From Candidatus Curtissbacteria bacterium (lineage in GTDB: Bacteria > Patescibacteriota > Microgenomatia > Curtissbacterales > GWA2-41-24), in the NCBI GenBank assembly GCA_016183325.1, contig JACPEV010000009.1, positions 1,303 through 65,302 on the forward strand: a stretch of 64,000 nucleotides of DNA. Direction: 5' to 3'. Shown in pieces: positions 1,881-63,819 of this stretch. The notes beneath the pieces were generated by a model. The model had not been told where the DNA came from. It made no database searches and saw nothing but the letters and a program-made list of their open reading frames with translations. A program made the translations under genes and the position numbers. Within the stretch, counting starts at the first letter, position 1; each line of letters opens with the position of its first letter.

Positions 1881-2654
1881 ATGATAAATACATTGTTAGG
1901 TATCAAAAAAGAAATGTCGGCAAGATTCGATCGGTTTGGTCGACGACTGCCGGTGACAGAAATTTATGCCGAGCCCAACATAGTCGTTGTTCAAAAGGAT
2001 GGGAGAATCTTAATTGGAGCTGGGCAAAAAAAGAGAGCCAGAAAAACCGAGAATGCCTTTGTTCAGGCAGCCGGTTTTGCGCCAAGGCTGGTTAAAGAAG
2101 TAAAAGTTGATCAACAAGAAATCAAGCCGGGAACTAAAGTCGATGTATCCATATTTGGACCGGGAGACGAAGTCAAAATAACCGGAGTAACCAAGGGAAA
2201 GGGATTTACAGGCGTTGTCAAAAGATGGGGTTTTGCCGGAGGTCCGAAGACTCACGGACAAAGCGATCGTCATCGTGCACCAGGTTCAATCGGCCAAACC
2301 ACCACACCTGGCAGGGTTTATAAAGGCAAAAAGATGGCTGGCCATATGGGTGTAGCCAAATTAACAATTACGGGGCTTGAAGTCATAGAAGTGGATGCCA
2401 AAAGCAATCTACTTATTGTAAAAGGTTCGGTTCCTGGTGCCAGAAACGGTTATTTGGTAATCGAAAAAACGGGAAAAGTAAAGGGGTACACTCCGCCCCC
2501 TGAACCAAAAGAGGAGCCGGAAGAAGAAGTTAGATCAGAAAAGACTGCAACCGCTGAAAACGCTGAAAAGAACACTGAGAACACTGAAAATCCAGGAGGA
2601 TACCCCCGGAGTGAAGTCGAGGCGTTTCCTGGAAAACACCCCGGGGGTGAGTAA
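1881..2654 (+). CDS. rplC: 50S ribosomal protein L3 with repeat-derived C-terminal tail
   Basis: TKGKGFTGVVKRWGFAGGPKTHG...GRVYKGKKMAGHMG. Confidence 0.97.
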   Translation: MINTLLGIKKEMSARFDRFGRRLPVTEIYAEPNIVVVQKDGRILIGAGQKKRARKTENAFVQAAGFAPRLVKEVKVDQQEIKPGTKVDVSIFGPGDEVKITGVTKGKGFTGVVKRWGFAGGPKTHGQSDRHRAPGSIGQTTTPGRVYKGKKMAGHMGVAKLTITGLEVIEVDAKSNLLIVKGSVPGARNGYLVIEKTGKVKGYTPPPEPKEEPEEEVRSEKTATAENAEKNTENTENPGGYPRSEVEAFPGKHPGGE

Positions 2655-2662
2655 AGACCGCA

Positions 2663-3481
2663 ATGTCAAACAAAAAGCAAAAAAGATCCAAAATCGCTAA
2701 GACCCGTATCAAAACCGGATCTAAAACCATAGATAAAAAAAAGATCACAGAAGGCACTGAAAATAAATTGAAGGCACAGAAAAGAACGGCTAAAAAATCA
2801 GCGCCCTCAAATATCTCAGTACCTTCAGTGATCACAAAACAATCAGGACCCTCAAAACTTGCAATCAAATCAGTATCCGCTAAAGTCTTTAATATGCAGG
2901 GTAGGGGCCTAGGTGTCGTTGCCCTCCCTAAAGCAATTTTTGGACATTTGCCAAATCAAAATTTACTTGCTCAAGCCATCAGGGTCTATGTGGCCAACAG
3001 TCATCCGCACACGGCTCACACTAAAACTCGAGCGGAAGTCGCCGGCGGAGGCACCAAACCTTGGCGCCAAAAAGGCACTGGCAGGGCTCGAGCCGGATCA
3101 ATCCGTTCACCGCTTTGGGTTGGTGGAGGCACGACTTTTGGTCCAAGGACAAAAGATACCAAGCTTTCACTGCCTAAAAAAATGAAGCATAAAGCATTAA
3201 TTGACGCGCTATCTGCAAAAGCTAAAGCTGGCGACATCAAAGTGATTTCAAATATTGAAAAAGTAGAGCCAAAAACCAAAAAGATTGCCACACTCTTGAA
3301 AAAGTTAGATGTTGGTAAAAATACTCTTCTTATTGTTTCCGAAAGAACCAAGAACGTTCATTTAGCCACACGTAACATCCCAAATATTAAAGTAGACATA
3401 CCTTCAAACCTAAACGCCTACGAAGTTACTAAAAATAATGACTTGTTAATCTCAAAGGAATCCCTACCCAAATTTAAATGA
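2663..3481 (+). CDS. rplD: 50S ribosomal protein L4 with Lys-rich N-terminal extension
   Basis: [37 protein letters not shown]; true start uncertain. Confidence 0.95.
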
Positions 3482-3801
3482 AACCAACTGACCTAATTAA
3501 AACATCAATCCTTTCCGAAAAAGCTTACAAGCAGATGGAAAATGGTATCTATACATTCTTGGTTGATAAGAGGTCAACCAAGAATCAAATAGTCAAAGCC
3601 GTCGAAAATCAATTCGCCGTTAATGTCATTCGGGTTAACGTATCTAAAAAATCTTTCAAGATGAAAAGAATTGGCAGGACTCGAAAACAAGCAAAAGTAG
3701 GCGGCGGCAAAAAAGCCATTGTCTATCTTAAAGCAGGCCAAAATATCGCAATTCTAAGTCCATCTAAAAAAGAAACTAAAAGCATTAAAAAGGAGAAATA
3801 A
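3478..3801 (+). CDS. rplW: 50S ribosomal protein L23
   Basis: ILSEKA...YTFLVD...KKAIVYLK; operon position. Confidence 0.95.
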   Translation: MKPTDLIKTSILSEKAYKQMENGIYTFLVDKRSTKNQIVKAVENQFAVNVIRVNVSKKSFKMKRIGRTRKQAKVGGGKKAIVYLKAGQNIAILSPSKKETKSIKKEK

Positions 3802-4623: not shown

Positions 4624-4630
4624 TTTTTAC

Positions 4631-4720: not shown

Positions 4721-5056
4721 ATGACAGCAGAGCATTTTAAGGACACTATTAATTACGACACTGTGAGGCTCAAAAATATAGACGCTGTGTATGAAAATAG
4801 TGCAGCTATTGCTCCGGAACGGACGATTTTAATTGCGACTGGGATTGATGGAGAAACAGATTATCAGTTTGAGAGATTAGCAAGGACTCACGAGGAGGCA
4901 CAAGAATATATTCAGAGTCAAAACGAGTCAGGCACAAGAATCATAGGTAGACCGGCCGACCCGTTAGCTGCTGAAGTTTGGAAGACAATTAGGTATTACG
5001 ACTTTGGTGTCGGAATTTGGAAGCAAATAGAAACATTAGAAAGGATGGATCAATGA
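4721..5056 (+). CDS. Orphan protein (111 aa) between rplB and rpsS
   Basis: AAAGGAG SD; stop overlaps the rpsS start (ATGA); no family recognised. Confidence 0.65.
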
Positions 5057-5400: not shown

Positions 5401-5844
5401 ATGATAGTTACCGCTACAGCTAAAAATGTCAGATTATCGCCCGAAAAGGCTCGTCTCGTCGTGGCGCAAATAAAAAAAATGAAGCCTTCCTATGCGATTG
5501 CAATTTTAGATCATGTTCACAAATCTTCATCACCAATTCTAAAAAAGGTGATCAAATCTGCCATTGCCAATGCTAAGAATAATTTCAATTTGGATGAGAA
5601 AACACTTACCTTTAAAGAAATTTTAGTTGGAAAAGGCCCGGTTTTTAAAAGATATAGAGCCGTCGCCAGAGGTAGAGCCCATTCTATTTTAAAGCGAACA
5701 AGCAATATAAAAGTGGTTTTAGAAGGAGAAAAAACAAAAGAGGTATCAAAAGTATCACAGGTACCAGAAGTATCACAGGACAAATCAAATATACGAGAAC
5801 GTATTTTTGATAAATCGAAAAGTAAAGATCAAAAATCAAAATGA
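5401..5844 (+). CDS. rplV: 50S ribosomal protein L22 with repeat-derived C-terminal tail
   Basis: VRLSPEKARLV...KSAIANAKNN...ARGRAHSILKRTSNI. Confidence 0.96.
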   Translation: MIVTATAKNVRLSPEKARLVVAQIKKMKPSYAIAILDHVHKSSSPILKKVIKSAIANAKNNFNLDEKTLTFKEILVGKGPVFKRYRAVARGRAHSILKRTSNIKVVLEGEKTKEVSKVSQVPEVSQDKSNIRERIFDKSKSKDQKSK

Positions 5845-5943
5845 CAAACCTATATTTATTGTTAGACTCATCACTCATCACTTACTCGCCTCGCTTCGCT
5901 CGCGAAGCGGGTCACTCATCACTACCGACCGAAGGGAGGTCTT

Positions 5944-6582: not shown

Positions 6583-6588
6583 TAAATC

Positions 6589-6648
6589 AAAAATCAAATA
6601 TACCAAAGCGTATTTTCGATAAATCGAAAAGCAAAAATCAAAATGACA
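6589..6648 (+). repeat. 60-bp dispersed repeat
   Basis: Identical to 14445-14504; diverged copy at 5782-5846. Confidence 0.9.
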
Positions 6649-6765
6649 TGTAAAAATTTAAAAACTATAAAATCCAAAATTGTAGCTTGCTTTGCAAGTA
6701 CAATTTTGTCCATTAAGGGAAAGGGAATATTAAGGGAAAACCGCTAGGTTTGCCCTTAAAGTTAT

Positions 6766-7402: not shown

Positions 7403-7408
7403 ATATCT

Positions 7409-13941: not shown

Positions 13942-14076
13942 GCCTGTTACAATATTCGAATGTTTACGAATGAGAATAATCCGAATAAATCCGAATATTC
14001 AGTTACGAGTTTGAAATTGTACCCCATTGTCACATTAGGATAAATTCGGACTATTACTATTCGGATATATTAGAAT

Positions 14077-14434: not shown

Positions 14435-14444
14435 TAGTTAATTT

Positions 14445-14504
14445 AAAAATCAAATATACCAAAGCGTATTTTCGATAAATCGAAAAGCAAAAATCAAAAT
14501 GACA
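14445..14504 (+). repeat. 60-bp dispersed repeat
   Basis: Identical to 6589-6648. Confidence 0.9.
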
Positions 14505-14565
14505 AGCAAAAACTTTCCATTTTCCATTTTCAATTTTCCATTAACTGCGACTGAAAGGAGCTATT

Positions 14566-16989: not shown

Positions 16990-17480
16990 AACACAAAGTA
17001 TCAGGCCAAAAACTAGGGCGCGACACCAGCGGTAGAAAAGCCTTGTTAAGAAATTTGGCAAGTGAACTTGTTGCAAAAGGCGCAATTATTACAACCTTAG
17101 CAAAGGCTAAATTTGCGCGCCCTTACATAGAAAAACTTGTAACTTCAGCAAAGATTAATCGGCTCACGAAACACAGAAGTCTCGAATCGCGACTTACACA
17201 CCAAGCATTTATTAGACTCCAAAGTGAAATTGGCCCCGGTTTTAGAAGTAGGGCTGGAGGTTACACCAGAATTATAAAATTAGGCATCAGAAAAGGTGAC
17301 GCTGCTCCGCTTGCAAGACTGGAGTTTCTGCAATGGGAAAAGACCCCAACCGCTAAAGTGCAAAAGTCACCAAGAAAAACCATCAATCGGCGTAAATCCG
17401 CTATAAACTTGTCCCGAGCGCCACTAGTGAGCGAAGTCGAACTGAAGTCGAGGAATCAGCGCTCATCTGCGAAATTATGA
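16986..17480 (+). CDS. rplQ: 50S ribosomal protein L17 with C-terminal extension
   Basis: KLGRD...RKALLRNL...GGYTRIIKLGIRKGDAAP. Confidence 0.96.
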   Translation: MKHKVSGQKLGRDTSGRKALLRNLASELVAKGAIITTLAKAKFARPYIEKLVTSAKINRLTKHRSLESRLTHQAFIRLQSEIGPGFRSRAGGYTRIIKLGIRKGDAAPLARLEFLQWEKTPTAKVQKSPRKTINRRKSAINLSRAPLVSEVELKSRNQRSSAKL

Positions 17481-17974
17481 AAAACGTTAAACCAAAAGAT
17501 ATAAAGCGAAATTGGCATTTACTTGATGCCAAAAATAAGATTTTAGGCAGACTTGCCTCAGAAATCTCTCTAATTTTAATGGGTAAAAACAAAAGTTATT
17601 ACACACCATATTTAGACACAGGAGACTATGTAGTTGTCATCAATGCAAAAGAAATTGTATTTTCTGGAAAAAAAGAAAGACAAAAACAATATTGGCATCA
17701 TAGCCAATATCCAGGAGGGATGCATGTAAAATCAGTTTCAGTCCTGAGAAATAAAAAACCAGAAGAGCTAATAAGACACGCAGTTGGCGGTATGATTCCA
17801 AAAACCAAACTTGGCAAAGATATGATGAAAAAACTTTTTATTTTTTCAAATAGTAATCATCCATATCAAGACAAATTTGCAACCACTGAAAAACCAGATG
17901 AACACCCCGGGGGTGAGTCAGGATCAAAGATGCATGCTAAATCGGGACCACCCCCAGCGGTTGCAATAAAATGA
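17477..17974 (+). CDS. rplM: 50S ribosomal protein L13 with C-terminal extension
   Basis: WHLLDA...LGRLAS...YTPYLDTGDYVVVINA...GMIPK. Confidence 0.97.
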   Translation: MKNVKPKDIKRNWHLLDAKNKILGRLASEISLILMGKNKSYYTPYLDTGDYVVVINAKEIVFSGKKERQKQYWHHSQYPGGMHVKSVSVLRNKKPEELIRHAVGGMIPKTKLGKDMMKKLFIFSNSNHPYQDKFATTEKPDEHPGGESGSKMHAKSGPPPAVAIK

Positions 17975-18438
17975 AACCAGAATCCAAAAACTCTTCGAGT
18001 CTGAGCCTCGGAGTCGAAGACCTCAGAGCCGGAGGCCAGAAATCAAAAACCAGCTATATCAGTGCTCATGGGAACAGGAAACAGGCAGTTGCCAGGATTA
18101 GGTTGTTTAAAGGAAAAGGCGAGACCGTTGTCAATGAAAAACCTATCGAAACATATTTCCCACAAGAAGTTGATAAAATTGTCTGGCAAAAACCCTTTTT
18201 AGTAACTAAATCGCAAGGCCAATACTATGCCACCATTAAAGTTAGTGGCTCTGGCAAAAGGAGTCAACTAGATGCCATTGCCCTTGGTATTTCAAGAGCT
18301 CTTGTCATGCAGGAAGAAAGTTTTCGCCCAATTCTTAGAAAAGCTGGTCTTCTAACTCGCGATTCCAGAAAAAAAGAACGCCGCAAATACGGAAGAGCAC
18401 AGAAGGCACGTAAAGGGAAACAAAGCCCCAAACGATAA
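17971..18438 (+). CDS. rpsI: 30S ribosomal protein S9 with N-terminal extension
   Basis: GNRKQAVAR...LLTRDSRKKERRKYG...QSPKR. Confidence 0.96.
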   Translation: MKPESKNSSSLSLGVEDLRAGGQKSKTSYISAHGNRKQAVARIRLFKGKGETVVNEKPIETYFPQEVDKIVWQKPFLVTKSQGQYYATIKVSGSGKRSQLDAIALGISRALVMQEESFRPILRKAGLLTRDSRKKERRKYGRAQKARKGKQSPKR

Positions 18439-29078: not shown

Positions 29079-29192
29079 GTAACTGTTCACCGTTACTGAC
29101 ACAACGCATATTGTTCGAGGCTGAAAGCCGAGAACTAAACTTCTCGCTCACGCTCGAAGAGTAATAACGTGTCAGCGATTGTGAACTCTTAC
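29079..29192. mobile_element. 114-bp MITE, copy 1
   Basis: Imperfect ~24-bp TIRs GTAACTGTTCAC.../...GTGAACTCTTAC; flanked by 8-bp duplication AAATTTAG; identical to 55393-55506. Confidence 0.9.
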
Positions 29193-29706: not shown

Positions 29707-30882
29707 ATGAAAAATACTTTTTTCATCAAAACCTTTGGTTGTCAGCAAAATTTAGCCGATTCCCAGCGGATTGCAAGCTACTATCTTGCTCGCGGTTACC
29801 GTCAGACCAACACTATGGAGTCGGCAAGTGAAATTGTTATCAACACGTGCATGATTCGTCAAACCGCAGAGGACAAAGTTACGGGTCTTGTTAAAAATAT
29901 CTTAAAACAATCAGCTCTCCGAGCCAGAGGCTCTCTGAGCCGGAGGCCCAAAATTGTCATCACGGGCTGCATGGTGGGCATGGCTGTTCGCGACGAAACT
30001 GGCAAGTATTTAAAAGCCCTAAGAAAAAGAATGCCTGAAGTCGACGAGTTTTTACCCCTTGAGGAAGTTGGTTTCGATTATCCTGCCCTAAGAAATGATG
30101 TTACACATAGCTGGGTCCCGATCTCAAACGGTTGCAACAATTTCTGCACCTTTTGTGTCGTGCCCTTCACACGTGGTCGGGAAGTATCCCGTCCATTTGA
30201 GGACATAATCTCAGAAATCAAAGAATTAGCCAGCATTGGCTGCAGGGAAGTTACCTTACTCGGTCAAAACGTCAATTCCTATGGAGCCGACTTAGTAAAA
30301 AACTCAAAAGGCTACAAATTGCCAAATGGTAGGCTAGTCAAACCGGTAATGGTCAAACACTTGGGTCGTTATCGTATTCCGACGTTGTTTCCATATCTTT
30401 TGGAAGAAGTTTGCAAAATCAAAGGCATTAAGATCGTTAAGTTTATTTCCTCAAACCCTTGGGATTTTTCAGACGAACTAATTGATGTAATCACCAAAAA
30501 TAAAAAAATCGACAGAAATTTACACTTAGCAGTTCAGTCAGGAGATGACGGAGTTCTTAAAAGAATGAATAGATGGTACACGAGAGAAGAATATATTAAT
30601 CTGGTTAAAAAAATTAAATCAAAAATCAAAGGTGCTCAAATATCAACAGATATTATTGTTGGCTTTCCAGGCGAGACGGAAGACCAATTTAAAAATATTA
30701 TCAAACTCGCCAAAGAAGCAAACTTTGCCTATGCTTATGTCTCCAAATATTCCCAACGTCCCAATACTGCTGCAACCAAAGCTTTTCCGGATGATATTCC
30801 CCATACTGAAAAAGAACGTCGCTTCCACATTGTTGATCAGCTCATCAACCACAAGGGCAATCCCCGCTCAGCAGTTCACTGA
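29707..30882 (+). CDS. miaB: tRNA methylthiotransferase MiaB-like (no TRAM domain)
   Basis: TFGCQQN, NTC, TGC; radical SAM GCNNFCTFC; GQNVNSY; TDIIVGFPGET. Confidence 0.92.
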   Translation: MKNTFFIKTFGCQQNLADSQRIASYYLARGYRQTNTMESASEIVINTCMIRQTAEDKVTGLVKNILKQSALRARGSLSRRPKIVITGCMVGMAVRDETGKYLKALRKRMPEVDEFLPLEEVGFDYPALRNDVTHSWVPISNGCNNFCTFCVVPFTRGREVSRPFEDIISEIKELASIGCREVTLLGQNVNSYGADLVKNSKGYKLPNGRLVKPVMVKHLGRYRIPTLFPYLLEEVCKIKGIKIVKFISSNPWDFSDELIDVITKNKKIDRNLHLAVQSGDDGVLKRMNRWYTREEYINLVKKIKSKIKGAQISTDIIVGFPGETEDQFKNIIKLAKEANFAYAYVSKYSQRPNTAATKAFPDDIPHTEKERRFHIVDQLINHKGNPRSAVH

Positions 30883-30967: not shown

Positions 30968-32305
30968 TCATCTCCACGTCGGAAGCCACATATATTTATC
31001 TATCGCAGCTACTTCAATCGGCCAACCAGAGGAAATTGGATAAAAATAGAAGAAAACAACAGCCACCAGAATTAAAAATATCAACACCAAATATTTCGCT
31101 CTACTTTTGTAAATTTGAAAAAGTGCCACTCCTAAAGCTATCGCCAAAAATGGAAGAGATGGAAGATAGTGGTGTAAAAAAAGTATCCTTGGGGTAAAAA
31201 CGAATGGTAGCCAAAAGATAAAGTATCCCAGAAGTATCAGTAAATATTTCTTTTCTCTTTCCGCAATCAACCGCCCTACAATATAAGAAATAGCCACTAA
31301 TCCTGCCCAAAAAATTAAAGGATTTCCAAGCGCATAAATATAACCGGCTTTTTCTCCCGCTTCGCCGCGAGGCGAGCGAGGCGAGCCGTATTGCTCGTAA
31401 GAAAAATACACGGGGCGTATATCAAGCGCCCAAGGGCAAAAAGTTTTTGGGCCACTGAGCCCTTTGGGAGCACAAAAAATCGGTGTCGTTGCGTACGAAT
31501 GCTCAAGATCTCCTCGACTTTGATACCACCAAATTTGTTGGTGCAAGTTATAAAATTGTTTAAAAGTGTAACCTTGAAGCCAAAATTGGCTGTAAGACAG
31601 AAGGTAAATCACTCCCGGGATAATAAATAAACTCAAAATTTTAGGGCTCACTAGCTTCTGCTTGAAATCATCCCAGAAGATATAAATAAAAAGAGCCAAT
31701 ATTGCCCAGAAACCTGTCCATTTAGTTGCAATCGAAAAACCTAAAAATAGACTCGTTAAAAATAAGAGAACTGATCTTTTCTTAACACCTCCGAGGTGGC
31801 TGAAGGACTCCTCGGAGGTGGACCTTACATAAAGAGCAGCAAAAATAAACGACATTAATACAAAAAATGTCACAAAAACGTCATTCATCGTAATGCGGCT
31901 CATGACAAATGTTAAATTTTCAAACGCTATAACAGTGGCAGCAAAAATCGCAACCACCGGCCCAAATAACAAATTAGCAAGAACAAAAGTTGCGCCAATT
32001 ATGCCTGTGCCAAAAATAGCACTTGGCAACCTCCACCCAAATGGCACGTCACCGAAAATCTTGATCGACCCCGCCTGAATCAACTTTGCCAGCGGTGGAT
32101 GCAGCCAATCATAAGCGGTTCCCTCTTTAGGTGCTGGAGAAAAAGGATCATAAGGCGCCGGATTATTGTCAGCGTAAGCTTTCGCCGTCACCGCATGATA
32201 AACTTCGTCAAAGTAGTAGTGACTGGGCTCTGTCAATCGGAATAAACGGATCGCCAAGGAAAAAACTGTCAAAAATATAAGAAGAACAAAAATTATTCTA
32301 TTCAT
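30968..32305 (-). CDS. Protein O-mannosyltransferase (PMT/GT39) family
   Basis: YFDEVYH, HPPLAK, FGWR, TKW, GNPLIFW, FLHHYLP. Confidence 0.88.
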   Translation of the reverse strand: MNRIIFVLLIFLTVFSLAIRLFRLTEPSHYYFDEVYHAVTAKAYADNNPAPYDPFSPAPKEGTAYDWLHPPLAKLIQAGSIKIFGDVPFGWRLPSAIFGTGIIGATFVLANLLFGPVVAIFAATVIAFENLTFVMSRITMNDVFVTFFVLMSFIFAALYVRSTSEESFSHLGGVKKRSVLLFLTSLFLGFSIATKWTGFWAILALFIYIFWDDFKQKLVSPKILSLFIIPGVIYLLSYSQFWLQGYTFKQFYNLHQQIWWYQSRGDLEHSYATTPIFCAPKGLSGPKTFCPWALDIRPVYFSYEQYGSPRSPRGEAGEKAGYIYALGNPLIFWAGLVAISYIVGRLIAEREKKYLLILLGYFIFWLPFVFTPRILFLHHYLPSLPFLAIALGVALFQIYKSRAKYLVLIFLILVAVVFFYFYPISSGWPIEVAAIDKYMWLPTWR

Positions 32306-41201: not shown

Positions 41202-42271
41202 AAAGAGTGCTTGTAATTTATGGCCCTACCGCAACCGGCAAGACTGATCTGGCTATTTCTTTAGCCAAAAAATTTAATGGAGAAATAATTTCTGCAGATT
41301 CTAGACAAGTCTATAGAGGTTTGGATATTGGCACAGGCAAAGTATCAATTCAAAAGTTAAGCGATCCAGCAATTCAGAAGTTCGAAAGCTTCTGGGTTGT
41401 AGATGGTGTCAGAATTCACGGTTTCGATCTGGTAGGATCACCCGTTCACGAACCCGGCTTGCAGAATTATTCCAAGCCGGGTTCGGAAGCTTTGGTTCGA
41501 TTTTCCGCCGCTGATTTCTTAAAATTTGCATCTACTACGATGATTCGAATCATTGAACAAAACAAATTACCTATTGTAGTAGGCGGGACGGGATTTTATA
41601 TTAAGACTTTAACTAGCGGTGTTGATACAATCGGAATTCCGGCAAATCCCGTACTACGTCGACAACTTGCTGATTTGTCAGTTGGCGAGCTTTATCAAAA
41701 ATTCGAATCGATCGATCCAAATCGCGCCAGATCAATGAACAGATCGGATCGTGCTAACCCTCGCCGGCTGATTCGTGCCATTGAAATCGCAATTCATAAG
41801 TCGTTCACCTCCGAGGAGTCCCCTTCGACTACTTCGACTACGCTCAGTACAAGTTCACTCAGGGCAAGCGAGCCCACCTCGGAGGTGAACACGAGCTACC
41901 AACTACCCGCTACCAGCTACTTACTCCTCGGTCTAACCGCCCCCAACAATTTCCTCTACCAGCGAGCCGATTGGTGGCTCGATCAGCAGCTTGCCCATGG
42001 CATGATCGAAGAAGTCCAAAAATTACTCGATCACAAAATTAACCCAATTTGGCTTGATAGCTTAGGACTTGAATATCGCTGGCTTTCTCGATACTTACTG
42101 AGGAAGATAAGTTTTAAAGAAGCTGTCGCCAGACTTAAAGGCGACACTCACAGTTTTATCAGACGCCAAAAAACCTGGTTTAGAAAGTTTAAAAACATCC
42201 AACTTTTTGATATCTCAAAAGACAATTGGCAAAAAGAGTTAGAAAAGAAACTTCAGCTTTGGTATCATTAA
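41198..42271 (+). CDS. miaA: tRNA dimethylallyltransferase with two in-frame palindromic insertions
   Basis: GPTATGKT, SADSRQVYRGLDIGTGK, VGGTGFY, RRLIRAIEI, RRQKTWF. Confidence 0.96.
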   Translation: MKRVLVIYGPTATGKTDLAISLAKKFNGEIISADSRQVYRGLDIGTGKVSIQKLSDPAIQKFESFWVVDGVRIHGFDLVGSPVHEPGLQNYSKPGSEALVRFSAADFLKFASTTMIRIIEQNKLPIVVGGTGFYIKTLTSGVDTIGIPANPVLRRQLADLSVGELYQKFESIDPNRARSMNRSDRANPRRLIRAIEIAIHKSFTSEESPSTTSTTLSTSSLRASEPTSEVNTSYQLPATSYLLLGLTAPNNFLYQRADWWLDQQLAHGMIEEVQKLLDHKINPIWLDSLGLEYRWLSRYLLRKISFKEAVARLKGDTHSFIRRQKTWFRKFKNIQLFDISKDNWQKELEKKLQLWYH

Positions 42272-43360: not shown

Positions 43361-43768
43361 TGCTTTTGGGAAGAAGAACGATCGCCCCGTACCATACGGT
43401 ACGGGGAGGAAAGTCCAGACAGCAGGAAGCAAAGGATCCCGCGTAAGCGGGGACTAGAAATAGCTGGTGTCTTGGCTCTTTACCCGCATGCGGAGCCAAG
43501 AACAGGTCTTGAGTTTACAAGACTTGAGAGCAACAGAGACGAGCGGGAGTGAAACGGGCAATCCTACTTGCTGCAACCCAGATTTGAACCGATCTAGCCA
43601 TAGGCTGGTCAGTCTTTGGCTAATGACCATGCTTCCGGGAGGTTCAGAGTAGGGGCATCCTGTTAAAAACCAGGACGAAGTGGCTAATTCGTCATTTCGA
43701 GATAGATGATCGTAAAAACCAAGTCTGACTTGGTAAAACAGAATCTGGCTTACATCTTCCCAAAAGCA
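43361..43768 (+). ncRNA. rnpB: RNase P RNA
   Basis: GAGGAAAGTCC, GCAACAGAGAC, GTGAAACGGGCAATCC, GCAA, AGATAGATGATCG, ACAGAATCTGGCTTA; P1 TGCTTTTGGGAAGA/TCTTCCCAAAAGCA. Confidence 0.95.
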
Positions 43769-46292: not shown

Positions 46293-49202
46293 ATGATTCA
46301 CCAAATAAGTATTACCGCAAAAAGCAAGAAAGATCCTCTAGGGCAGGATTTACTCGCCGAGATTAAAAGAACACTGGGGATTAACAATATTAAAAACATA
46401 AGAACAGCCAAAATTTACAGACTTCAAGGTGTAAGCTTAAAAAAAGCCCAAGAATTTACCCAAAAAGTTTTATTCGAGCCGATTGATCAAGTAATGTCTT
46501 TTGACAAACCATTATTCAATGATGCTGGTCAAAAAATTGAGGTCGCCTACAAACTTGGGGTTATGAATCCTGAAGTTGGATCGCTACTTAAGTCGGCAAT
46601 TGACCTTGGTATCAATCTGGAAGCGGCGGACGCTTCTCGTCAGTACGCTTTTTATGGAGGTCTGACAAAGGAACAACTTGCAGAGATTGCCGTCAGACTT
46701 TTAGTTAACAAAACTGTTGAGCAAATCATCGAAAAACCTCCGAAAAATCTTATTATCACTGGCAAGGTCCAAAAAACAGAAAAAATTCTGATCAGAAATA
46801 TGAACGATAGTCAACTAGTAAAGCTTTCAAAAGACAAGCTATTTCTCAACTTAGAAGAAATGAAAGTAATACAAAATTATTTTAAAAAAATAAAAAGGGA
46901 TCCTACCGATTGTGAAATTGAAGTTCTTGCCCAAACATGGAGCGAACATTGTGTGCATAAAACTTTCAAAGCCAAACTCATTGTCGATGGCAAAGTCAAA
47001 AAACCGTTAATTGAGAGGATTAAGGCAACTATCAAAAACAACCCCAAAATTGTAGTCTCCGCTTTTGTCGACAATGCCGGTGTCATCGATTTTTATGACG
47101 GTTTTGCCATAAACGGCAAAGTCGAAACTCACAATTCTCCATCAGCAATCGAACCTTATGGTGGGGCAATGACCGGTTCCGGAGGTGTTTTTCGCGACAT
47201 CCTTGGGACTGGGCAAGGAGCAAAAGTTGTCGCATCAACCGACATTTTTTGTTTTGCGCCTCCCAATACGTCTTCAAAATTAATTCCCCCGGGCTGTCTT
47301 CCTCCGGACTATCTTTTAAGAAAGGTTGTTGCCGGCGTTCGAGATTACGGGAATAGAGTTGGCATTCCCACCAACAACGGGTCAGTCCATTTTCATCAAG
47401 ATTTTCGTGCCAAGCCCACAGTTGCCGCAGGCGCTTACGGCATTGTTCCCAAAAAACAAGCAAAAAAACAATGGCCCAAAAAGGGTGATCTTATTTTGAC
47501 TATTGGAGGCCGAACTGGTCGTGATGGTATCCATGGCGCTACTTTTTCTTCAGGCGAAATGACCGACCGCACAATTTCAGTTTCCGGCTCGGCAGTTCAG
47601 ATCGGCAACGCTATTGAAGAAAAAAGAATGATCGATGCCATCCTGACACTTCGTCAAAATGGTTTAGTCAGAACATTAACCGACTGCGGCGCCGGCGGTT
47701 ACTCATCGGCAGTTGGCGAAATGGGCCAAAAAATTGGCGCCCGAGTTTATCTTGAAAAAGTTCTTCTCAAATATACTGGTCTTGCTCCTTGGGAAATATT
47801 TCTTTCCGAATCGCAAGAGCGCATGGTACTTTGTGTTTCGCCCCGTCAGATTAAAAAAGTTAAAGAAATTTGCCAACTTTACAACGTCGAAGTAACCGCA
47901 ATCGGCAAGTTTGACGGTTCAAAAAGGCTTAAGGTTCTTTATAAAGATCAAGTAGTTTGCGATCTTGCGATGAAATTTTTACATGAAGGTCTTCCTCAAA
48001 GAAAAATGATAGGAACGACCGCAAAAAAACAAATCAAAGAAAAATTACCGGCAAAAAATATCGACCTTGAAAATATCTGGCAAAAGATCATGTCTCATGG
48101 CAATGTTTGCTCAAAAGAGCCAATAGTAAGAATGTATGATCATACAGTCCAAGGCACAAGCTCCCTGCCACCTCTTTGCGGGGTCAATCAGGATGCTCCA
48201 AATGACGGAGCAGTTATTCGCCCTATTTTAAAAAAACCATATGGCCTGGTTATAACTCACGGATTGAATCCCTCCCTGAATAAAATCGATCCTTATAAAG
48301 GCAGTATTTGGGCGATACTTGAAGCGGTATCAAACTATGTTGCAGTCGGTGGCAATTTAAAGGACGCTGCCTTAATAGACAATTTTATCTGGTCATTTCC
48401 AGACGAAAAAAGTCTTGCCGATTTGGACAAATCGGTTGATGCTTGTATCAAAATGGCCAAAATTTTAAAAATGCCTTTCGTTTCCGGCAAAGACAGTCTT
48501 TCATCAACGTACAGATTTAGAGATGGCCGAATTTTAAAAATTCCACCTGTTCTTTTAATTTCCGTTTTTGGAAAAATTCCTGATGTCAACAAAACCGTCA
48601 GCTCTGACTTTAAGAAAATTGGATCTACAATAGTTTTAGTTGGCAAACCGGATATCAATAACCTTGGTGGCACAGTTTACTTTGATCTAACAGACTCAAC
48701 GAGTCCCAATGTTTCAAGTCCTGATCTTCAACCTACAACAAAAGTTCTTTCGACAATCACTTCAGTGATTCGAAACGGTGAAGTAATGTCTGTCCATGAT
48801 ATTTCTGAAGGAGGACTTGCAGGATCACTCGCCGAAATGTGCTTTGGGGGTGATTGTGGAGCTAAGATCGATTTAGCTAACATTAAAAATTATCAAAAAA
48901 TTCGCTATAGCAAAAAAATGGAAAATAGTGTCAATGTAACCGACACCCCCGGGGTGGGCAAAACAAGACCGGACTTTATTTTATTTAATGAAACCCCAGG
49001 AACCTTTTTGGTAGAAGTGGCAAATCCCCAACTTGCTCAAAAACTTTTTGCCAAAGTCCCTCACTATATTCTTGGACAGACCATAGCAGATCAATCAATT
49101 ATCGTCGCGCAGGGATCTAAAAAAATTGTCAGAATTGATGTCGGTAAACTTAAACAATCGTGGCAAAAGCCAATGAAAGAAATATTTCATTATGAAGCCT
49201 AA
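46293..49202 (+). CDS. purL: FGAM synthase PurL with N-terminal PurS-like region
   Basis: WSEHCVHKTF, ETHNSPSAIEP, TGRDGIHGA, SESQERM, SGKDS, HDISEGG. Confidence 0.96.
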   Translation: MIHQISITAKSKKDPLGQDLLAEIKRTLGINNIKNIRTAKIYRLQGVSLKKAQEFTQKVLFEPIDQVMSFDKPLFNDAGQKIEVAYKLGVMNPEVGSLLKSAIDLGINLEAADASRQYAFYGGLTKEQLAEIAVRLLVNKTVEQIIEKPPKNLIITGKVQKTEKILIRNMNDSQLVKLSKDKLFLNLEEMKVIQNYFKKIKRDPTDCEIEVLAQTWSEHCVHKTFKAKLIVDGKVKKPLIERIKATIKNNPKIVVSAFVDNAGVIDFYDGFAINGKVETHNSPSAIEPYGGAMTGSGGVFRDILGTGQGAKVVASTDIFCFAPPNTSSKLIPPGCLPPDYLLRKVVAGVRDYGNRVGIPTNNGSVHFHQDFRAKPTVAAGAYGIVPKKQAKKQWPKKGDLILTIGGRTGRDGIHGATFSSGEMTDRTISVSGSAVQIGNAIEEKRMIDAILTLRQNGLVRTLTDCGAGGYSSAVGEMGQKIGARVYLEKVLLKYTGLAPWEIFLSESQERMVLCVSPRQIKKVKEICQLYNVEVTAIGKFDGSKRLKVLYKDQVVCDLAMKFLHEGLPQRKMIGTTAKKQIKEKLPAKNIDLENIWQKIMSHGNVCSKEPIVRMYDHTVQGTSSLPPLCGVNQDAPNDGAVIRPILKKPYGLVITHGLNPSLNKIDPYKGSIWAILEAVSNYVAVGGNLKDAALIDNFIWSFPDEKSLADLDKSVDACIKMAKILKMPFVSGKDSLSSTYRFRDGRILKIPPVLLISVFGKIPDVNKTVSSDFKKIGSTIVLVGKPDINNLGGTVYFDLTDSTSPNVSSPDLQPTTKVLSTITSVIRNGEVMSVHDISEGGLAGSLAEMCFGGDCGAKIDLANIKNYQKIRYSKKMENSVNVTDTPGVGKTRPDFILFNETPGTFLVEVANPQLAQKLFAKVPHYILGQTIADQSIIVAQGSKKIVRIDVGKLKQSWQKPMKEIFHYEA

Positions 49203-50016
49203 AGTTTGTATTTTAAGAACCGACGGTACCAATTGCGATGAAGAGCTCTTTTATGCCTTTGAGAAATTTGGCGCCGCTCCCCAGTATGTCCACGTCAATC
49301 AGCTAAGAGCTAAAAGCAAAAAGCTAAAGGCATTCCAGATTCTGGCCCTTCCCGGCGGTTTTTCTTATGGAGATGATGTCGCCTCCGGCAAAATTCTGGC
49401 TGTTGAGTTGATTTCATACCTCAAAGATCAACTTCAGGAATTTATCAGCAAAAATGGACTTGTGATCGGCATTTGTAATGGTTTTCAAACACTCGTGCGA
49501 ACTGGCCTTTTGCCATTTGGCCATTTAGGCAAGATGGAGGCAACTCTTGCCCAAAACGAAAGCGGTCATTTTGAATGTCGCTGGATCAGATTAAAAATCG
49601 AAAAAAGCCGCTGCCCCTTTTTAAATCTCTATCTCAAACCGGGTTTGCCTACGTATTCCAAACCCGGTTTGGATAATGGTTTGGAAAATGGCGTCTTTGA
49701 ATTGGCCGTTAATCATGGTGAAGGTCGCTTTTTCGCCAACAATGAAACAATTGCAACAATGGAACAATCAAATCTCGTTGTGTTTCGCTACGTTGATGGA
49801 AAAGGTAAACCAACTGGGCATTATCCCGAGAATCCCAATGGTTCAATCAACGCTATCGCTGGAGTCTGTGATCCAACCGGTAGAATCTTAGGCTTGATGC
49901 CCCATCCCGAAAAATTCGTCGACATTACTCAATACCCAAACTGGCGCCGGGGAAAAGTGACCGAACCCCATGGAGCCTTTATCTTTAAACAACTGATAAG
50001 ATTTGCCACTGTCTGA
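49192..50016 (+). CDS. purQ: FGAM synthase glutaminase subunit
   Basis: GTNCD, PGGFSYGD, GICNGFQ, HGEGR, MPHPE. Confidence 0.96.
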   Translation: MKPKVCILRTDGTNCDEELFYAFEKFGAAPQYVHVNQLRAKSKKLKAFQILALPGGFSYGDDVASGKILAVELISYLKDQLQEFISKNGLVIGICNGFQTLVRTGLLPFGHLGKMEATLAQNESGHFECRWIRLKIEKSRCPFLNLYLKPGLPTYSKPGLDNGLENGVFELAVNHGEGRFFANNETIATMEQSNLVVFRYVDGKGKPTGHYPENPNGSINAIAGVCDPTGRILGLMPHPEKFVDITQYPNWRRGKVTEPHGAFIFKQLIRFATV

Positions 50017-51504: not shown

Positions 51505-51540
51505 ACCATCACACTCGATGACATATCACAGAGCGTGATG
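51505..51540. repeat. 36-bp palindromic repeat, left copy (possible operator)
   Basis: ACCATCACACTCGATGACATATCACAGAGCGTGATG, directly before TATAAT. Confidence 0.8.
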
Positions 51541-51564
51541 TTATAATCCGATCTGCAGAACATT

Positions 51565-52140
51565 ATGAAAGTAGATCCAAAACGAAAAGAAGTTTTAACA
51601 ATGTTAGGTCTTGGTGTATTTCTTTCCGTAAGCATTATCTTCCCGGGACTACCGTTAATAACTAAAAAAATTCTCGACATCGCGCAAGAAGAAGAAATAA
51701 GGAAAAAGCAAAAAGATTGGGATAAATTCAACTTATGGCGCCTTCGGCAGTTAATAAAAAGGATGCAGGATTCAAAATATATTGAAATCAAAGAAGAAAA
51801 TGGAATTCCAATTATCAAAATAACACAAAAAGGTAAAAACAAGCTCTTGAGTTATGATTTGGAAAAGTTAAAGCTCAATGAAACTAAATGGGATGGTAGA
51901 TGGAGACTGATTATATATGACGTTCAAAAATCAAAAAGGGCAAACAGTGAAACATTCAGAAGAGCATTGTTGAGGTTGAACTTACTAAAATTACAAAAAA
52001 GCGTCTACTTGACACCATTTAAATGCGAGGACGAAATTGAATATCTCAGATTACTTTTTGATATAGGTAAAGAAGTACAAATTTTGACTGTAGGAAGCTT
52101 GGAAAACGAATCTGCCTACAGACGCTACTTCGGAATCTAA
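51565..52140 (+). CDS. PaaX-like wHTH plus Cas2-like domain protein
   Basis: wHTH ending ITQKGK, then WDGRWRLIIYDV...FRRAL...LQKSVYLTP. Confidence 0.85.
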   Translation: MKVDPKRKEVLTMLGLGVFLSVSIIFPGLPLITKKILDIAQEEEIRKKQKDWDKFNLWRLRQLIKRMQDSKYIEIKEENGIPIIKITQKGKNKLLSYDLEKLKLNETKWDGRWRLIIYDVQKSKRANSETFRRALLRLNLLKLQKSVYLTPFKCEDEIEYLRLLFDIGKEVQILTVGSLENESAYRRYFGI

Positions 52141-52141
52141 C

Positions 52142-52177
52142 ACCATCACACTCCGTGATATGTCACAATACGTGATG
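52142..52177. repeat. 36-bp palindromic repeat, right copy
   Basis: ACCATCACACTCCGTGATATGTCACAATACGTGATG; 29/36 identical to the left copy; 1 nt after the stop. Confidence 0.8.
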
Positions 52178-52240
52178 GTATTGTGATTGACGTTTTTCGG
52201 CAATGACGCCCTAGAAGTCACAAGGAAAGTAAATTAAACC

Positions 52241-55392: not shown

Positions 55393-55506
55393 GTAACTGT
55401 TCACCGTTACTGACACAACGCATATTGTTCGAGGCTGAAAGCCGAGAACTAAACTTCTCGCTCACGCTCGAAGAGTAATAACGTGTCAGCGATTGTGAAC
55501 TCTTAC
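55393..55506. mobile_element. 114-bp MITE, copy 2
   Basis: Identical to 29079-29192; flanked by 8-bp duplication CATAACAA. Confidence 0.9.
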
Positions 55507-57927: not shown

Positions 57928-59194
57928 AATGTACAAAACGCAAAATTATTCTTCGAGCGAATCCGCCAACTGGCGGAGAAGTCGAGAAACTACCTCTGAA
58001 AATATAATAAATTTTAAGGTAAGTTCTCGACCTGCCCCGTACCGTATGGTAACGGGGCAAGCTCGAACAATAACGGTAGCTGTTTTGGGGAGCCACTCTG
58101 CTCTAGATGTCTGCCGAGGTGCCAAGGACGAGGGTTTAAAGACTTTAGTCATCGCAGAATATGGGCGCGACAAAACTTACGCAGAGTATTTTAAAACTAG
58201 AAGTCCTTCGACAAGCTCAGGACGATCTTCGATCGGTTGCGTTGATGAAGTTTTGTATGTTGATAAATTTAAAGATATTCTTTTGCCAAAAATTCAGAAG
58301 ATCTTAAAATCAAAAAATAGCATTTTCATCCCCCATCGTTCCTTTGAAGTCTATATCAACGATTATGACGCCATCGAAAACGACTTTAAAATTCCCATAT
58401 TTGGAAATCGTAAACTTCTGAGAATAGAAGAAAGGTCCGAAAAACCAAATCAATATGACCTTTTGAAACAAACCGGTATTAAGTACCCAAAAACATTTAA
58501 AGATCCAAAAGATATTGATACTATTGTTATTGTTAAAGTAAACGAAAAAGAAAGAAAGTACGAAAGAGCCTTTTTCCTTGCAAGCACTCGCAAGCAGTAT
58601 CAGTCCGAGTCAGAAAGGTTAATTAAAGCAGGAGTTATTACTAAAAAAGATCTGAATGCCGCAATAATTGAAGAATTTATTTTAGGAGTCCAAGTTAATT
58701 TCAACTTCTTCTATTCTCCAATTAGTCGTCGACTCGAATTAGTTGGAACAGATACCAGAAGACAAACTGATATAGAAGGAATTTTAAGATTGCCTGTTGA
58801 CAGACAAAAGGAAATTCTTGAAATGAAGACTAGAGCTGGAAATAAAAAAATCAATCCTCAGTGGGAAGAAGCGGGGCACATTGCTGTCACTACTTTGGAA
58901 TCCTTACTTGAGCCTGCTTTCGAAATCGGAGAAAAGTTTATCAAAGCGGCCCGACAGATGGTTCCACCCGGCGTCATCGGTCCATTCAGTCTGCAATCAG
59001 TCATCACTCCCGGCCCGCCTAAAAAGGAAATTGTTGTTTTTGATGTTTCTCCAAGAGTGCCCGGCTCCCCAGGTATATCAAGCACTCCCTACAGCGCTTA
59101 TTTGTGGGGTCAATCCGTCAGCATGGGTCGTCGAGTTGCCATGGAAATTAAAAATGCAATCTTTAGAAAAAAACTGAATAAAATATTGACTTAA
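57920..59194 (+). CDS. Second PurP-like ATP-grasp paralogue with palindromic insertions
   Basis: VLGSHSALDVCRGAKDEG, IPHRSF, ERAFF, GTDTRRQT, GPFSLQ, DVSPRVPGSPG; start uncertain. Confidence 0.85.
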   Translation: MSKMYKTQNYSSSESANWRRSRETTSENIINFKVSSRPAPYRMVTGQARTITVAVLGSHSALDVCRGAKDEGLKTLVIAEYGRDKTYAEYFKTRSPSTSSGRSSIGCVDEVLYVDKFKDILLPKIQKILKSKNSIFIPHRSFEVYINDYDAIENDFKIPIFGNRKLLRIEERSEKPNQYDLLKQTGIKYPKTFKDPKDIDTIVIVKVNEKERKYERAFFLASTRKQYQSESERLIKAGVITKKDLNAAIIEEFILGVQVNFNFFYSPISRRLELVGTDTRRQTDIEGILRLPVDRQKEILEMKTRAGNKKINPQWEEAGHIAVTTLESLLEPAFEIGEKFIKAARQMVPPGVIGPFSLQSVITPGPPKKEIVVFDVSPRVPGSPGISSTPYSAYLWGQSVSMGRRVAMEIKNAIFRKKLNKILT

Positions 59195-61187: not shown

Positions 61188-61257
61188 GATCACTGAGGCT
61201 AATAAAACATTCAGTGTTTCCAGTGGTTGCTTAAGTTCAGTGTTATCAGTGGTTACA

Positions 61258-62229
61258 ATGATAGACAAAAAAACTATTTTAGAAAATATTCCCGAAGCAA
61301 TAGACAAAATCGCTTATCCAAAACTCGGCAGGCGAAACAGCGGAAAAGTCCGCGATTGGTACATTAGAAATAACCTTCGCATCCTGATTACCACAGATCG
61401 CGTTTCTGCTTTCGATAAAGTTGTAGGAACAGTTCCTTTCCGTGGCGCTGTCTTAAATAAGCTTTCCCAATTTTGGTTTGAAAAAACCAGAGATATTGTT
61501 GCCAATCATATGATTGGTATAACCGACCCGAATGTCATGCTCGTTTCCGAATGCCAAGCATTGCCAGTGGAAGTAATTGTTAGGGGACATATCACGGGTG
61601 TTACGCAAACCTCAATCTGGAAAATGTATTCGGAAGGTCAAAGAATTATCTATGGCATTAAATTTCCAGAAGGTCTTGTTAAAAATCAAAAGCTAAAAAA
61701 ACCTGTTATTACTCCAACAACAAGAGCGACTGGTCCTGGCGGACATGATGAACCAATTACCGCAGCCGAAATCATCAAGAAAAAACTTGTACCTCCAAAT
61801 ATTTGGAGACAGATCGAAAAAGTTGCCCGCGATCTTTTCGAAAGAGGAACCAAGATTTGTCAAAAAGGCGGCTTTATTTTAGCGGATACTAAGTATGAAT
61901 TTGGTCTCTCCAAAAATGGCAAACTTACTTTGATAGACGAAATTCATACTCCTGATAGCAGCCGGCTTTGGCTGAAAAAAACCTACAGAGAAAGATTCAA
62001 AAAAGGCCAAGAAGTTGAAAACTACGATAAGGAAATTATGCGCATTTGGTTTAAAGAACGAGGATATAGTGGAAAGGGTAAAGCGCCGGAAATACCCGAC
62101 AGTCTCAAGGTCCAAATTGCCACCCGCTATATGGAGGTTTATGAAAAGATAACTGGAGAAAAATTTATAATTGATTTGAAAGTTCCACCAAAAGAAAGAA
62201 TTTTAGAAAATCTTTCGATGCTCATATAA
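61258..62229 (+). CDS. purC: SAICAR synthetase
   Basis: SGKVRD, TDRVSAFD, PVEVIVRG, ADTKYEFG, DEIHTPDSSR; start set at 61258. Confidence 0.96.
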   Translation: MIDKKTILENIPEAIDKIAYPKLGRRNSGKVRDWYIRNNLRILITTDRVSAFDKVVGTVPFRGAVLNKLSQFWFEKTRDIVANHMIGITDPNVMLVSECQALPVEVIVRGHITGVTQTSIWKMYSEGQRIIYGIKFPEGLVKNQKLKKPVITPTTRATGPGGHDEPITAAEIIKKKLVPPNIWRQIEKVARDLFERGTKICQKGGFILADTKYEFGLSKNGKLTLIDEIHTPDSSRLWLKKTYRERFKKGQEVENYDKEIMRIWFKERGYSGKGKAPEIPDSLKVQIATRYMEVYEKITGEKFIIDLKVPPKERILENLSMLI

Positions 62230-63819
62230 ATGATTATAGTCGTTAACTTTGGTGGTCAATTTGCTCACCTGATCGCAAGAAGAATCAGAAATTTGGGTGT
62301 CAAAAGTGAATTAGTTCCACCTGATATTTCTCCAAAAAATCTTATTAAACTTTCTCCGCAGGCAGTTATTTTTTCTGGCAGTCCTTCTTCTGTTTACGAA
62401 AATAACGCTCCCAAAATAAGTCCCCAAATTTACAATTTAAATTTACCAATTCTAGGAATCTGTTACGGTCAGCAATTAATAGCCCATCAACTTGGAGGCA
62501 AAGTTTCATCACATGATGCTAAACAATTCGGAAAAGAAATATTAAAAATAAAAAAGTCATCGCTCTTTTCAGGTCTTTCCTCACCTCAAACAGTTTGGTT
62601 TTCCCATGGAGATCAGGTGGATAAACTATCACCAGGTTTTGAAACAATTGCCTCTACAACAAATGCCAAAATTGCCGCCATGCAAAATTCAGCAAAAAAT
62701 ATTTACGGCATCCAATTTCATGCCGAAGTTGTCCATACTCCAAATGGCCAAAAAATCCTTGAAAATTTTCTTTTTAAAATAGCCAAGGCCAAAAAAGATT
62801 GGAAGCTAGACTTTGTCAAAGAAAATTTAATCAAAAATCTCAAAAAAGAAATATCCAATCAAAAAGTCTTAATGGCGATTTCTGGAGGAGTTGATTCTCT
62901 TGTTGCGGCATCGATTTTAACAGAAGCGATTGGTAAAAATTTACTGCTTGTATTTATCGATACAGGACTATTAAGAAAATACGATATCCCTGATCTGAAG
63001 GCTACAGTAAAAACACAAAAATTTAATAATTTAAAAATTGTAGACGCGCAAGAAAGGTTTCTTAGTGCATTAAAGGGAATTACCGATCCAGAAAAAAAAC
63101 GCCAGGTTATCGCCAGGATCTATTTTGAAGTTCTCACAGAAGAAGCTAAAAAGTTAGGGAATCTTAATTTTCTTGCCCAAGGCACCATCTATCCCGATAG
63201 AATCGAATCGGGAAAGCCCTCAAAACATGCCGATAAAATCAAAAGCCATCACAACGTCACATTGCCGCAAGGTTTAAAACTAAAAATAATAGAACCACTC
63301 GCCGAATTTTATAAAGATGAAGTTAGAAAAATCGGCAAACTTTTAAATATCCCAAGCGGATTTCTAGATCGCCATCCCTTTCCCGGCCCTGGTCTGGCAA
63401 TTAGAATTTTGGGAGAAGTAACAGAGGAGAGATTGAAAATATTAAGGGAAGCAGATGAGATTTTTATCAGCGAATTAAAAAGATATGAACAAGGTGCATA
63501 TAATAAGGAAGTTTCACTTCGGTCAACTTCCTTGCGGTCCTCCCGAGTCGGACTCGGTGCGGGCCTAAAGGTAGGACAAGCGTTTGCCGCTCTTTTCCCG
63601 GTAAAGTCAGTGGGAGTAATGGGCGATAGCAGAACTTATTCTTATATAATTTCTCTAAGAGCCGTCGACACAGTCGATTTCATGACCGCAGACTGGTCTA
63701 AGTTACCAAACGAATTGTTAGAAAAAGTATCTACGAGAATCGTCAATGAAGTTCGAGGAGTCAACCGCGTCGTTTATGACATCACCCAAAAACCCCCGGC
63801 AACCATAGAGTATGAGTAA
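62230..63819 (+). CDS. guaA: GMP synthase (glutamine-hydrolysing)
   Basis: GICYGQQ, SHGD, SGGVDS, QGTIYPD, IKSHHNV, HPFPGPGL, KPPATIE. Confidence 0.98.
   Translation: MIIVVNFGGQFAHLIARRIRNLGVKSELVPPDISPKNLIKLSPQAVIFSGSPSSVYENNAPKISPQIYNLNLPILGICYGQQLIAHQLGGKVSSHDAKQFGKEILKIKKSSLFSGLSSPQTVWFSHGDQVDKLSPGFETIASTTNAKIAAMQNSAKNIYGIQFHAEVVHTPNGQKILENFLFKIAKAKKDWKLDFVKENLIKNLKKEISNQKVLMAISGGVDSLVAASILTEAIGKNLLLVFIDTGLLRKYDIPDLKATVKTQKFNNLKIVDAQERFLSALKGITDPEKKRQVIARIYFEVLTEEAKKLGNLNFLAQGTIYPDRIESGKPSKHADKIKSHHNVTLPQGLKLKIIEPLAEFYKDEVRKIGKLLNIPSGFLDRHPFPGPGLAIRILGEVTEERLKILREADEIFISELKRYEQGAYNKEVSLRSTSLRSSRVGLGAGLKVGQAFAALFPVKSVGVMGDSRTYSYIISLRAVDTVDFMTADWSKLPNELLEKVSTRIVNEVRGVNRVVYDITQKPPATIEYE

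Follow-up and report, generated by a model that had tools for sequence, protein, structure and literature searches.

Short palindromic repeats lying in frame within core genes of a Candidatus Curtissbacteria genome, and their candidate partner enzymes

Several unrelated families of short palindromic repeats lie in frame within housekeeping genes of a Candidatus Curtissbacteria bacterium (G000, a 1.21-Mb genome in a 95% complete assembly from groundwater metagenomes). The starting point was a 64,000-nucleotide stretch of this genome (the window; G000:C18:1303-65302), in which a preliminary description had noted hairpins inside core proteins and had proposed that several unrelated short families colonise permissive loops. 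This proposal stands, as the inserts are in frame and far above chance. Y1 (HUH) transposases (for families A and D) and mini GIY-YIG nucleases (for family K and perhaps B and E) have probably spread the hairpins at the ends of their own genes, with selection keeping the in-frame copies in tolerant loops. The direct observations are the repeats themselves, their placement in frame and, in one structural model, in loops, and the repeat-gene-repeat layouts.

In-frame insertions in core genes

The repeat families are defined by motif seeds in the window: A, 31786-31798; an A variant, 48944-48956; B, 58203-58223; C, 31356-31387 and 216-245; D, 49657-49673; E, 43385-43406; F, 17996-18037; and K, 58023-58071. 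Seven window proteins whose names had been checked (MiaA, MiaB, GuaA, PurQ, PurL, PurP-like and PMT-like) were aligned with orthologues from the same family or class; G-numbers other than G000 denote these relatives' genomes. All eleven hairpins described in the core proteins are present and lie in open frames, as had been claimed, and the alignments identify true in-frame insertions in each of the seven. The same peptides in orthologues of distant relatives had been named as evidence against insertion. Most relatives lack each insert, while some inserts are common to close relatives.

Two inserts interrupt miaA. Site 1 (41449..41487; plus strand, like all window features below unless stated) is a family D doublet that adds about 17 amino acids (aa), is missing from 26 of 29 relatives and has a palindrome that also flanks a Y1 gene (G000:C14:55621-56292). 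Site 2 (41803..41890) is a family A doublet in which two family B hairpins are nested; the plain doublet that G022 has at this site is 48 nucleotides (nt) shorter. Compound copies near-identical to it occur in G000 at C4:91390, C4:119932 and C6:2515, and this loop varies in all relatives. Mapping onto a predicted structure agrees with a loop position. In an AlphaFold model of MiaA made with a 28-sequence alignment, the mean predicted local distance difference test score (pLDDT) is 84.5 (40.7 in a single-sequence version), and the two inserts (residues 84-90 and 94-97; 208-232) are the sole segments below 50.

The purQ insert, another family D doublet (49635..49673), is missing from 25 of 28 relatives and common to G014; G011 and G046 have a different element there. 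In the PMT-like glycosyltransferase gene, on the minus strand, a family A doublet (site 1, 31786..31820) is missing from 10 of 12 relatives and a family C insert of 10 aa (site 2, 31356..31385) from all 12; the latter has eight blastn matches elsewhere in G000. A single family A variant palindrome (48944..48956) lies within a loop of purL that is 23 aa longer; of 16 relatives with sequence there (two further rows lack it), 12 have a short loop and four hold other or related elements. The guaA insertion (63509..63571) consists of 63 nt (21 aa) with two hairpins, has exact boundaries at the DNA level with 4-nt direct repeats as borders (63505-63508 and 63568-63571), and is missing from 10 of 10 relatives. 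It falls between residues 419 and 447, a stretch that is four residues long in the closest solved structure. In miaB, an insert of 8 aa (29911..29948) resembles family F, a weak family link, and one of 13 relatives also has a long insert. The MiaB insert and the left GuaA hairpin are weaker cases, with no blastn match elsewhere in G000.

The purP-like gene holds three elements. A family K half with a small nested hairpin lies in frame past the ancestral start (57946..57987). A second K half, with a nested family E hairpin and an alternative ATG at 58046, follows at 58023..58071 and shares 55 of 58 nt with an in-frame GluRS insert. The third, a family B hairpin of 21 nt in a loop (58203..58223), is also in 4 of 12 relatives and missing from the other 8. 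The purine cluster of the window contains two archaeal-type PurP-like genes (55558-56571 and 57920-59194).

Counted genome-wide, the motifs lie far above three codon-shuffled control genomes (0.0 to 0.3 copies). G000 has 46 exact family A copies and 78 at one mismatch, 17 and 32 of the A variant, 14 and 33 for family B (two seeds), 9 of C, 12 of D and 18 of E. Six families merge to 155 loci, 91 of them inside 79 of 1,210 called genes; the resulting share of about 6.5% is a lower bound that covers these six families only. Shares in coding sequence (CDS) are approximate because the gene calls come from a simple caller. Families have both coding and intergenic copies, in line with the reported recurrence of several hairpins between genes. 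For family A, 43 of 63 loci are in CDS, lower than the coding share of 0.825 (P 0.007); the figures are 14 of 35 for B-only loci and 5 of 19 for E, and K is mostly intergenic.

The hosts are unrelated housekeeping genes. All 30 host proteins scanned match named families, and 77 of the 79 host genes are without a close paralogue. They include nine aminoacyl-tRNA synthetase subunits, TopA, RF1, LepA, DnaK, DnaJ, GrpE, DnaG, RecF, TsaD, GatB, S1 and AtpB. Because the frames are open in single-copy housekeeping genes, we infer that the inserts are translated. The relatives examined all have their own inserts, with 74 calls at 29 sites across 45 families (a few neighbouring sites are counted twice), and A+B compound matches occur in 21 of 200 other genomes of the class.

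It is extremely unlikely, and already largely refuted, that these are assembly artefacts or chance palindromes in naturally variable loops. Repeats do break contigs here (C9 and C28 start within family A copies), and the L17 and L22 cases discussed below are not family inserts. However, shuffled controls are near zero and the same families are found in frame in other genomes. Contigs assembled separately in three runs, which may be source samples, cross the inserts with zero differences, except at MiaA site 2, where two contigs overlap; this agreement with the window makes misassembly unlikely. In one X5 contig (depth 3.3), two of three differences fall within the MiaB insert, a signal too weak to be used.

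Selection likely filters the frame of the inserts, since intergenic nested copies take any length while coding ones take multiples of three. Additions nested in family K tips have many lengths that are not multiples of three between genes, and lengths of 9, 27 and 27 nt within genes. The 39 adjacent family A pairs are inverted doublets spaced 21-69 nt apart, and the spacing is a multiple of three in 30 of the 34 coding pairs. The elements measure 13-90 bp and are read in two frames and on both strands. For family A, the reading frames are used 50, 29 and 1 times, and at 25 of 43 loci a stop occurs in the frame that is avoided. The insert peptides are linker-like, rich in Ser, Gly and Pro and poor in Ile, Leu and Phe.

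Strict frame preservation and avoidance of the stop-bearing frame argue that the inserts are read. This bears on the very unlikely alternative that the hairpins are kept for a host function in DNA or mRNA, or are removed from the message so that the proteins are without the peptides. The stems of shared inserts are better conserved than synonymous sites, and RNase P RNA has a helix made by a family E-like hairpin, both as a host function might have it, but most relatives do without each insert.

Candidate partner enzymes

The preliminary description saw no mobilising enzyme in the window and suggested a search for Y1 genes flanked by the same hairpins. The candidate mobilisers do lie outside the window, although the window holds one palindrome-gene-palindrome cassette of another type, treated below. 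G000 has six Y1 genes (Pfam Y1_Tnp matches above cut-off, with the HUH motif visible in the alignment), and the one at C14:55621-56292 is flanked by the MiaA/PurQ family: 3 of the 12 family D copies are found there, with 0.07 expected. The same family A 13-mer flanks Y1 genes in G016, G014 and G093, those of G016 and G014 being sisters (support 0.86) on a FastTree tree labelled with locus ids.

Across the class, an A-like palindrome stands on both sides of 12 of 29 related Y1 genes (one of 30 was left out of this survey) and of 0 of 400 control genes, and a matching 13-bp palindrome on both sides of 25 of 68 Y1 genes. The motif rule used to select Y1 genes left out five loci of relatives and one of G000, the latter added by coordinates for the flank comparison; two further loci were not Y1 open reading frames (ORFs) by the rule. 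Of the Y1-flank cores found at relatives' loci away from Y1 genes, 10 of 40 copies share their genome with a matching Y1 gene, with 3.0 expected (permutation P 0.003, a figure that kinship inflates); examples come from lepA in G005, G043 and G016. A Protein Data Bank search with a family A Y1 protein gave no significant match.

Small GIY-YIG nucleases form the second group of candidates. Above cut-off, G000 has 14 small GIY-YIG genes and one long one, besides 9 PaaX-like and 14 four-helix-bundle genes. One small GIY-YIG gene is flanked by family K, the family at the PurP-like N-terminus. Family K has 57 copies and is inverted on the flanks of two of the three genes in one GIY-YIG clade, one of the two in G000. 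Family E lies upstream of two sister GIY-YIG genes. Profiles over 87 GIY-YIG genes gave the K link and weak B and E signals only, with C and F without a partner, and strict seeds gave no GIY-YIG link for B, C, E or F among 35 genes.

Mini GIY-YIG genes of G000 also lie in or beside tRNA genes (C20:29464, C20:79022, C11:11957, C23:12007 and C1:2533), some with a partial tRNA duplication that contains a small hairpin. In a relative, a GIY-YIG gene seems by eye, from its flanks, to split the 5' part of a 16S rRNA gene (L235, G016:C41:25450-26450).

Other genes were considered as partners and rejected. No DUF559 nuclease was found in G000, and four-helix-bundle and PaaX-like genes have at most one nearby match to families A-F, which is chance level. 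The cassette in the window (51505..52181) is a PaaX/Cas2-like gene (51565-52140) between its own 36-40-bp palindromes. It was rejected as a source of the coding inserts, with none of its 12 palindromes wholly in a CDS. Each of the nine PaaX-like paralogues in G000 has a private palindrome pair.

A miniature inverted-repeat transposable element (MITE) of 114 nt carries family K hairpins and an 8-bp target duplication (29079..29192, no strand assigned; identical copy at 55393-55506). Five of its eight copies in G000 have a perfect 8-bp duplication, and there are four relatives of 123-124 nt; the net insertion is 122 nt and every copy is intergenic, which fits the frame filter described above. 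It looks recently active. One copy (C12:5481) is inserted in a family B hairpin. An intact IS1595-family transposase gene lies beside dnaJ (L291:1432-2220, G000:C4), but the match between its ends and the MITE is limited to the terminal 4 nt, and a partnership is therefore not established. Only this separate 114-124-nt intergenic element (9 of 12 copies with the 8-bp duplication) resembles a MITE of a DDE transposase in its terminal inverted repeats and duplication of fixed length; A, B and D have no fixed target duplication.

The mechanism we favour draws on the REP/RAYT and Ssn systems compared below. Hairpins at the ends of Y1 and small GIY-YIG genes would be spread by those enzymes on single-stranded DNA. 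The enzyme would bind and nick its own hairpin, and strand transfer or repair would leave a single copy or an inverted doublet elsewhere. Insertion itself would not be frame-aware. Purifying selection would act as the filter, because 83-86% of the genome is coding and because of the length and frame statistics; copies would be kept in genes only if they add a multiple of three nucleotides, are free of stops and fall in a loop or terminus. A colonised loop may then take further hits, nested in the first hairpin's tip or, in other lineages, from other families.

Alternatively, the palindromes could be operator-like sites of the Y1 and nuclease genes, with copies spreading by template switching, slippage or short-homology gene conversion and no enzyme catalysis. 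We consider this unlikely. It would fit the upstream palindrome at the G016 Y1 gene, which overlaps a promoter-like spacing (by eye), the private palindromes that bracket the PaaX-like genes, the frequent duplication of the host hairpin's 4-5-nt loop by nested copies, and the few bases that empty miaA and guaA sites share with the element end. However, the PaaX-type palindromes belong to a gene without a Y1 or GIY-YIG domain and none of the 12 lies wholly in a CDS, versus 46 exact copies of one Y1-type palindrome, and PMC3333891 describes the cutting and transfer of REP DNA in vitro by Y1 proteins of this class.

Several observations weigh against enzymatic spread as proposed. Family A is the largest family, and none of its 102 copies is near any of the six Y1 genes of G000; a tblastn search for a seventh intact Y1 gene in this 95% complete assembly found none. 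For 30 of the 40 core copies, no matching Y1 gene was seen in the genome. The Y1 proteins score 50.7 to 69.4 bits against the cut-off of 80 of NF047646, the NCBIfam model for REP-associated transposases and the only family matched. Family B is about eightfold enriched near GIY-YIG genes, an enrichment confounded because both are intergenic, yet never stands on both sides among the relatives' 74 genes. Families B, C, E and F are without a one-to-one partner gene, and matches of C, E and F near GIY-YIG genes are few. In the syntenic region, a fold better than that of codon shuffles (z <= -2) is found for just 21 of 74 insert calls, against 9 of 180 among the controls. Intergenic family A pairs are mostly spaced by multiples of three as well (4 of 5), so part of that bias may be intrinsic. 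For trigger factor and RF1, a shorter empty allele was not seen among four and five relatives, respectively.

The same holds for current movement. No empty allele was seen among the listed contig matches from runs X1, X2, X4, X5 and X6, and a polymorphic empty/filled site, looked for in all runs, was not seen; present-day mobility is therefore unsupported. The preliminary description had raised the possibility of an active short-insertion system; repeat-gene-repeat layouts and candidate enzymes were found, and activity itself stays a possibility.

Loop reuse and other features of the window

Elements recur at the same places. The tip is enlarged in 19 of 61 family K matches by B, C, E and other hairpins; in several of these, a copy of the host loop stands on either side. 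Among 23 relatives, lepA has an empty loop in 11, a loop with two extra residues in 2 and one occupied by any of several elements in 10. Loops of recF, topA, tsaD, RF1 and purL are likewise occupied by different elements across genomes; in recF, family A (in G000) and family D (in G014) occur on one and the same scaffold. In topA of five relatives (L313, L315, L332, L333 and L334), a longer structured element of roughly 100 nt lies in frame at the loop that holds the G000 family A doublet.

Two inserts are shared almost unchanged between G000 and G003, which are not sisters on 24 proteins. The PMT insert is identical at 36 of 36 nt, with 12 of 12 third positions identical (P 0.0001), in a gene with saturated synonymous sites (29% identity at fourfold sites); the RF1 insert is identical at 51 of 54 nt (counted by eye). 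Repeated insertion, conversion or selection on DNA could each account for this near-identity. It might also mean that occupied sites are actively rewritten, a hairpin nick driving conversion from a master copy or a related species' DNA in a miniature form of homing, with site choice partly directed. The exchange of families on the recF scaffold and the varied lepA fillings point the same way. We nevertheless regard such rewriting as distinctly unlikely: other shared inserts are less extreme (P 0.015 to 0.65), G012 has a decayed copy at the PMT site, and insert-tolerant loops are few, so that loop reuse is expected from filtering alone.

A broader proposal is possible but rather doubtful. The class may run parallel hairpin-writing systems (Y1 and mini GIY-YIG) whose 20-60-nt products end up mainly in coding DNA and target hairpin tips, and whose occupied loops are rewritten by homing-like conversion that swaps family cores; protein loops would thus be grown and refreshed by mobile DNA directed to particular sites.

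Inserts had also been proposed in the tails of five ribosomal proteins, whose names (L3, L13, L17, L22 and S9) we take to be correct. Three of them hold family copies: L3, a degenerate family A variant doublet in the C-terminal tail (2601..2649); L13, a family A variant palindrome in the C-terminal extension (17903..17915), a tail missing from 10 of 14 relatives; and S9, a family F element at the N-terminus (17995..18037) with 44 of 45 nt identical to the atpB insert. By contrast, the L22 end (5774..5850) is a different, 77-nt repeat of three copies that runs across the stop codon; the other two are intergenic (6583-6659 and 14439-14515), and all lie at gene ends of the ribosomal protein cluster. 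The L17 tail (17405..17460) has a weak hairpin with a weak fold and no match elsewhere in the genome, leaving its family membership unconfirmed. All 13 to 14 relatives have long, variable extensions on L3, L17, L22 and S9, and hence these did not arise from the elements.

Elsewhere in the window, an intergenic family C hairpin lies at 216..245. The family E-like hairpin at 43385..43406 makes up the first variable helix of the RNase P RNA, near its 5' end. This RNA (43366-43767) has several expanded regions and scores 78 bits, under the Rfam gathering score; an Rfam scan of the window at that score returned no match. Two orphan ORFs within the ribosomal protein cluster (701-1060 and 4721-5056) have no NCBIfam match. 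Degenerate short tandem repeats lie between genes (1118-1156, 1550-1658, 13954-14055, 25739-25761 and 30883-30968), and 7-mer repeats rank among the commonest words of the genome.

Relation to known systems

The system works like the doublets of repetitive extragenic palindromes (REPs) known as REPINs, with their REP-associated tyrosine transposases (RAYTs), and like the Rickettsia palindromic elements (RPEs). It is not classed with the first because of its coding location and the tag comparison, nor with the second because of element length. The comparisons that follow concern the portions covered of each cited paper.

As in REP/REPIN-RAYT systems, the repeats are short palindromes, mostly inverted doublets with a variable spacer; a single Y1 gene is flanked on both sides, and a genome has several repeat types with their own gene. 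The layout of the present Y1 genes also corresponds to that of REPtrons. REPINs are described as almost exclusively extragenic (bioRxiv 10.1101/2021.07.10.451892; PMC3333891), whereas CDS here holds 43 of the 63 family A loci and 91 of the 155 loci that the six families give together. Cores of 13-17 bp and doublets of 35-45 bp are a further difference. Family A has no conserved 5' tetranucleotide tag (its flanks vary, by eye), family B prefers a 4-5-nt tail in 13 short copies only, and the Y1 proteins fall under the NCBIfam cut-off.

Intragenic REPs are already known. Di Nocera 2013 (PMC3733652) describes GTAG- and CGTC-tagged REPs, singles and dimers, within ORFs, where they encode 20-30 aa, often in repair or tRNA-related genes; the TIRtrons of the same paper resemble the present Y1 genes in lying between untagged inverted repeats. 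Most REPs there are intergenic, and the portion covered does not describe Patescibacteria, tip nesting or, bar Xanthomonas recB, multi-family loop reuse.

RPEs measure about 150 bp, encode a conserved peptide and have nearly half of their copies in ORFs (PMC10969869). Both kinds of palindrome are inserted in frame into unrelated housekeeping genes, in a genome that is reduced and host-dependent; the elements here differ in their size of 13-90 bp, in being read in two frames and on both strands, and in having candidate enzymes.

For family K only, a small single-domain GIY-YIG gene between dispersed hairpin repeats recalls the NTS-ssnA-NTS layout of Ssn. As a difference, the partner clade of family K is apart on the tree from the G000 GIY-YIG genes with tagged inverted repeats, and movement by Ssn of its own SRM/NTS repeats is not shown in the covered portion of Chenal 2025 (PMC11893778). 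The main text of that paper has no mention of Patescibacteria or Candidate Phyla Radiation (CPR). Our literature search found neither this system in Patescibacteria nor a coding majority, the nesting of families in each other's tips or such extensive reuse of loops; bioRxiv 10.64898/2026.09.22.753630 proved to have no bearing on the subject. Relevant genomes could be listed in the supplements of PMC11893778 and PMC3733652, which lay outside the search.

These findings matter in several ways. Coding palindromes of the RPE type gain candidate enzymes and substrates open to in vitro testing, which the Rickettsia literature covered lacked. They are a counter-example to extragenic REPINs, as a repeat class thought to be intergenic lives mostly within genes here. 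The inserts bring false signal into phylogenies, profiles and gene-start calls of Patescibacteria, and they are also a natural map of insertion tolerance in essential proteins.

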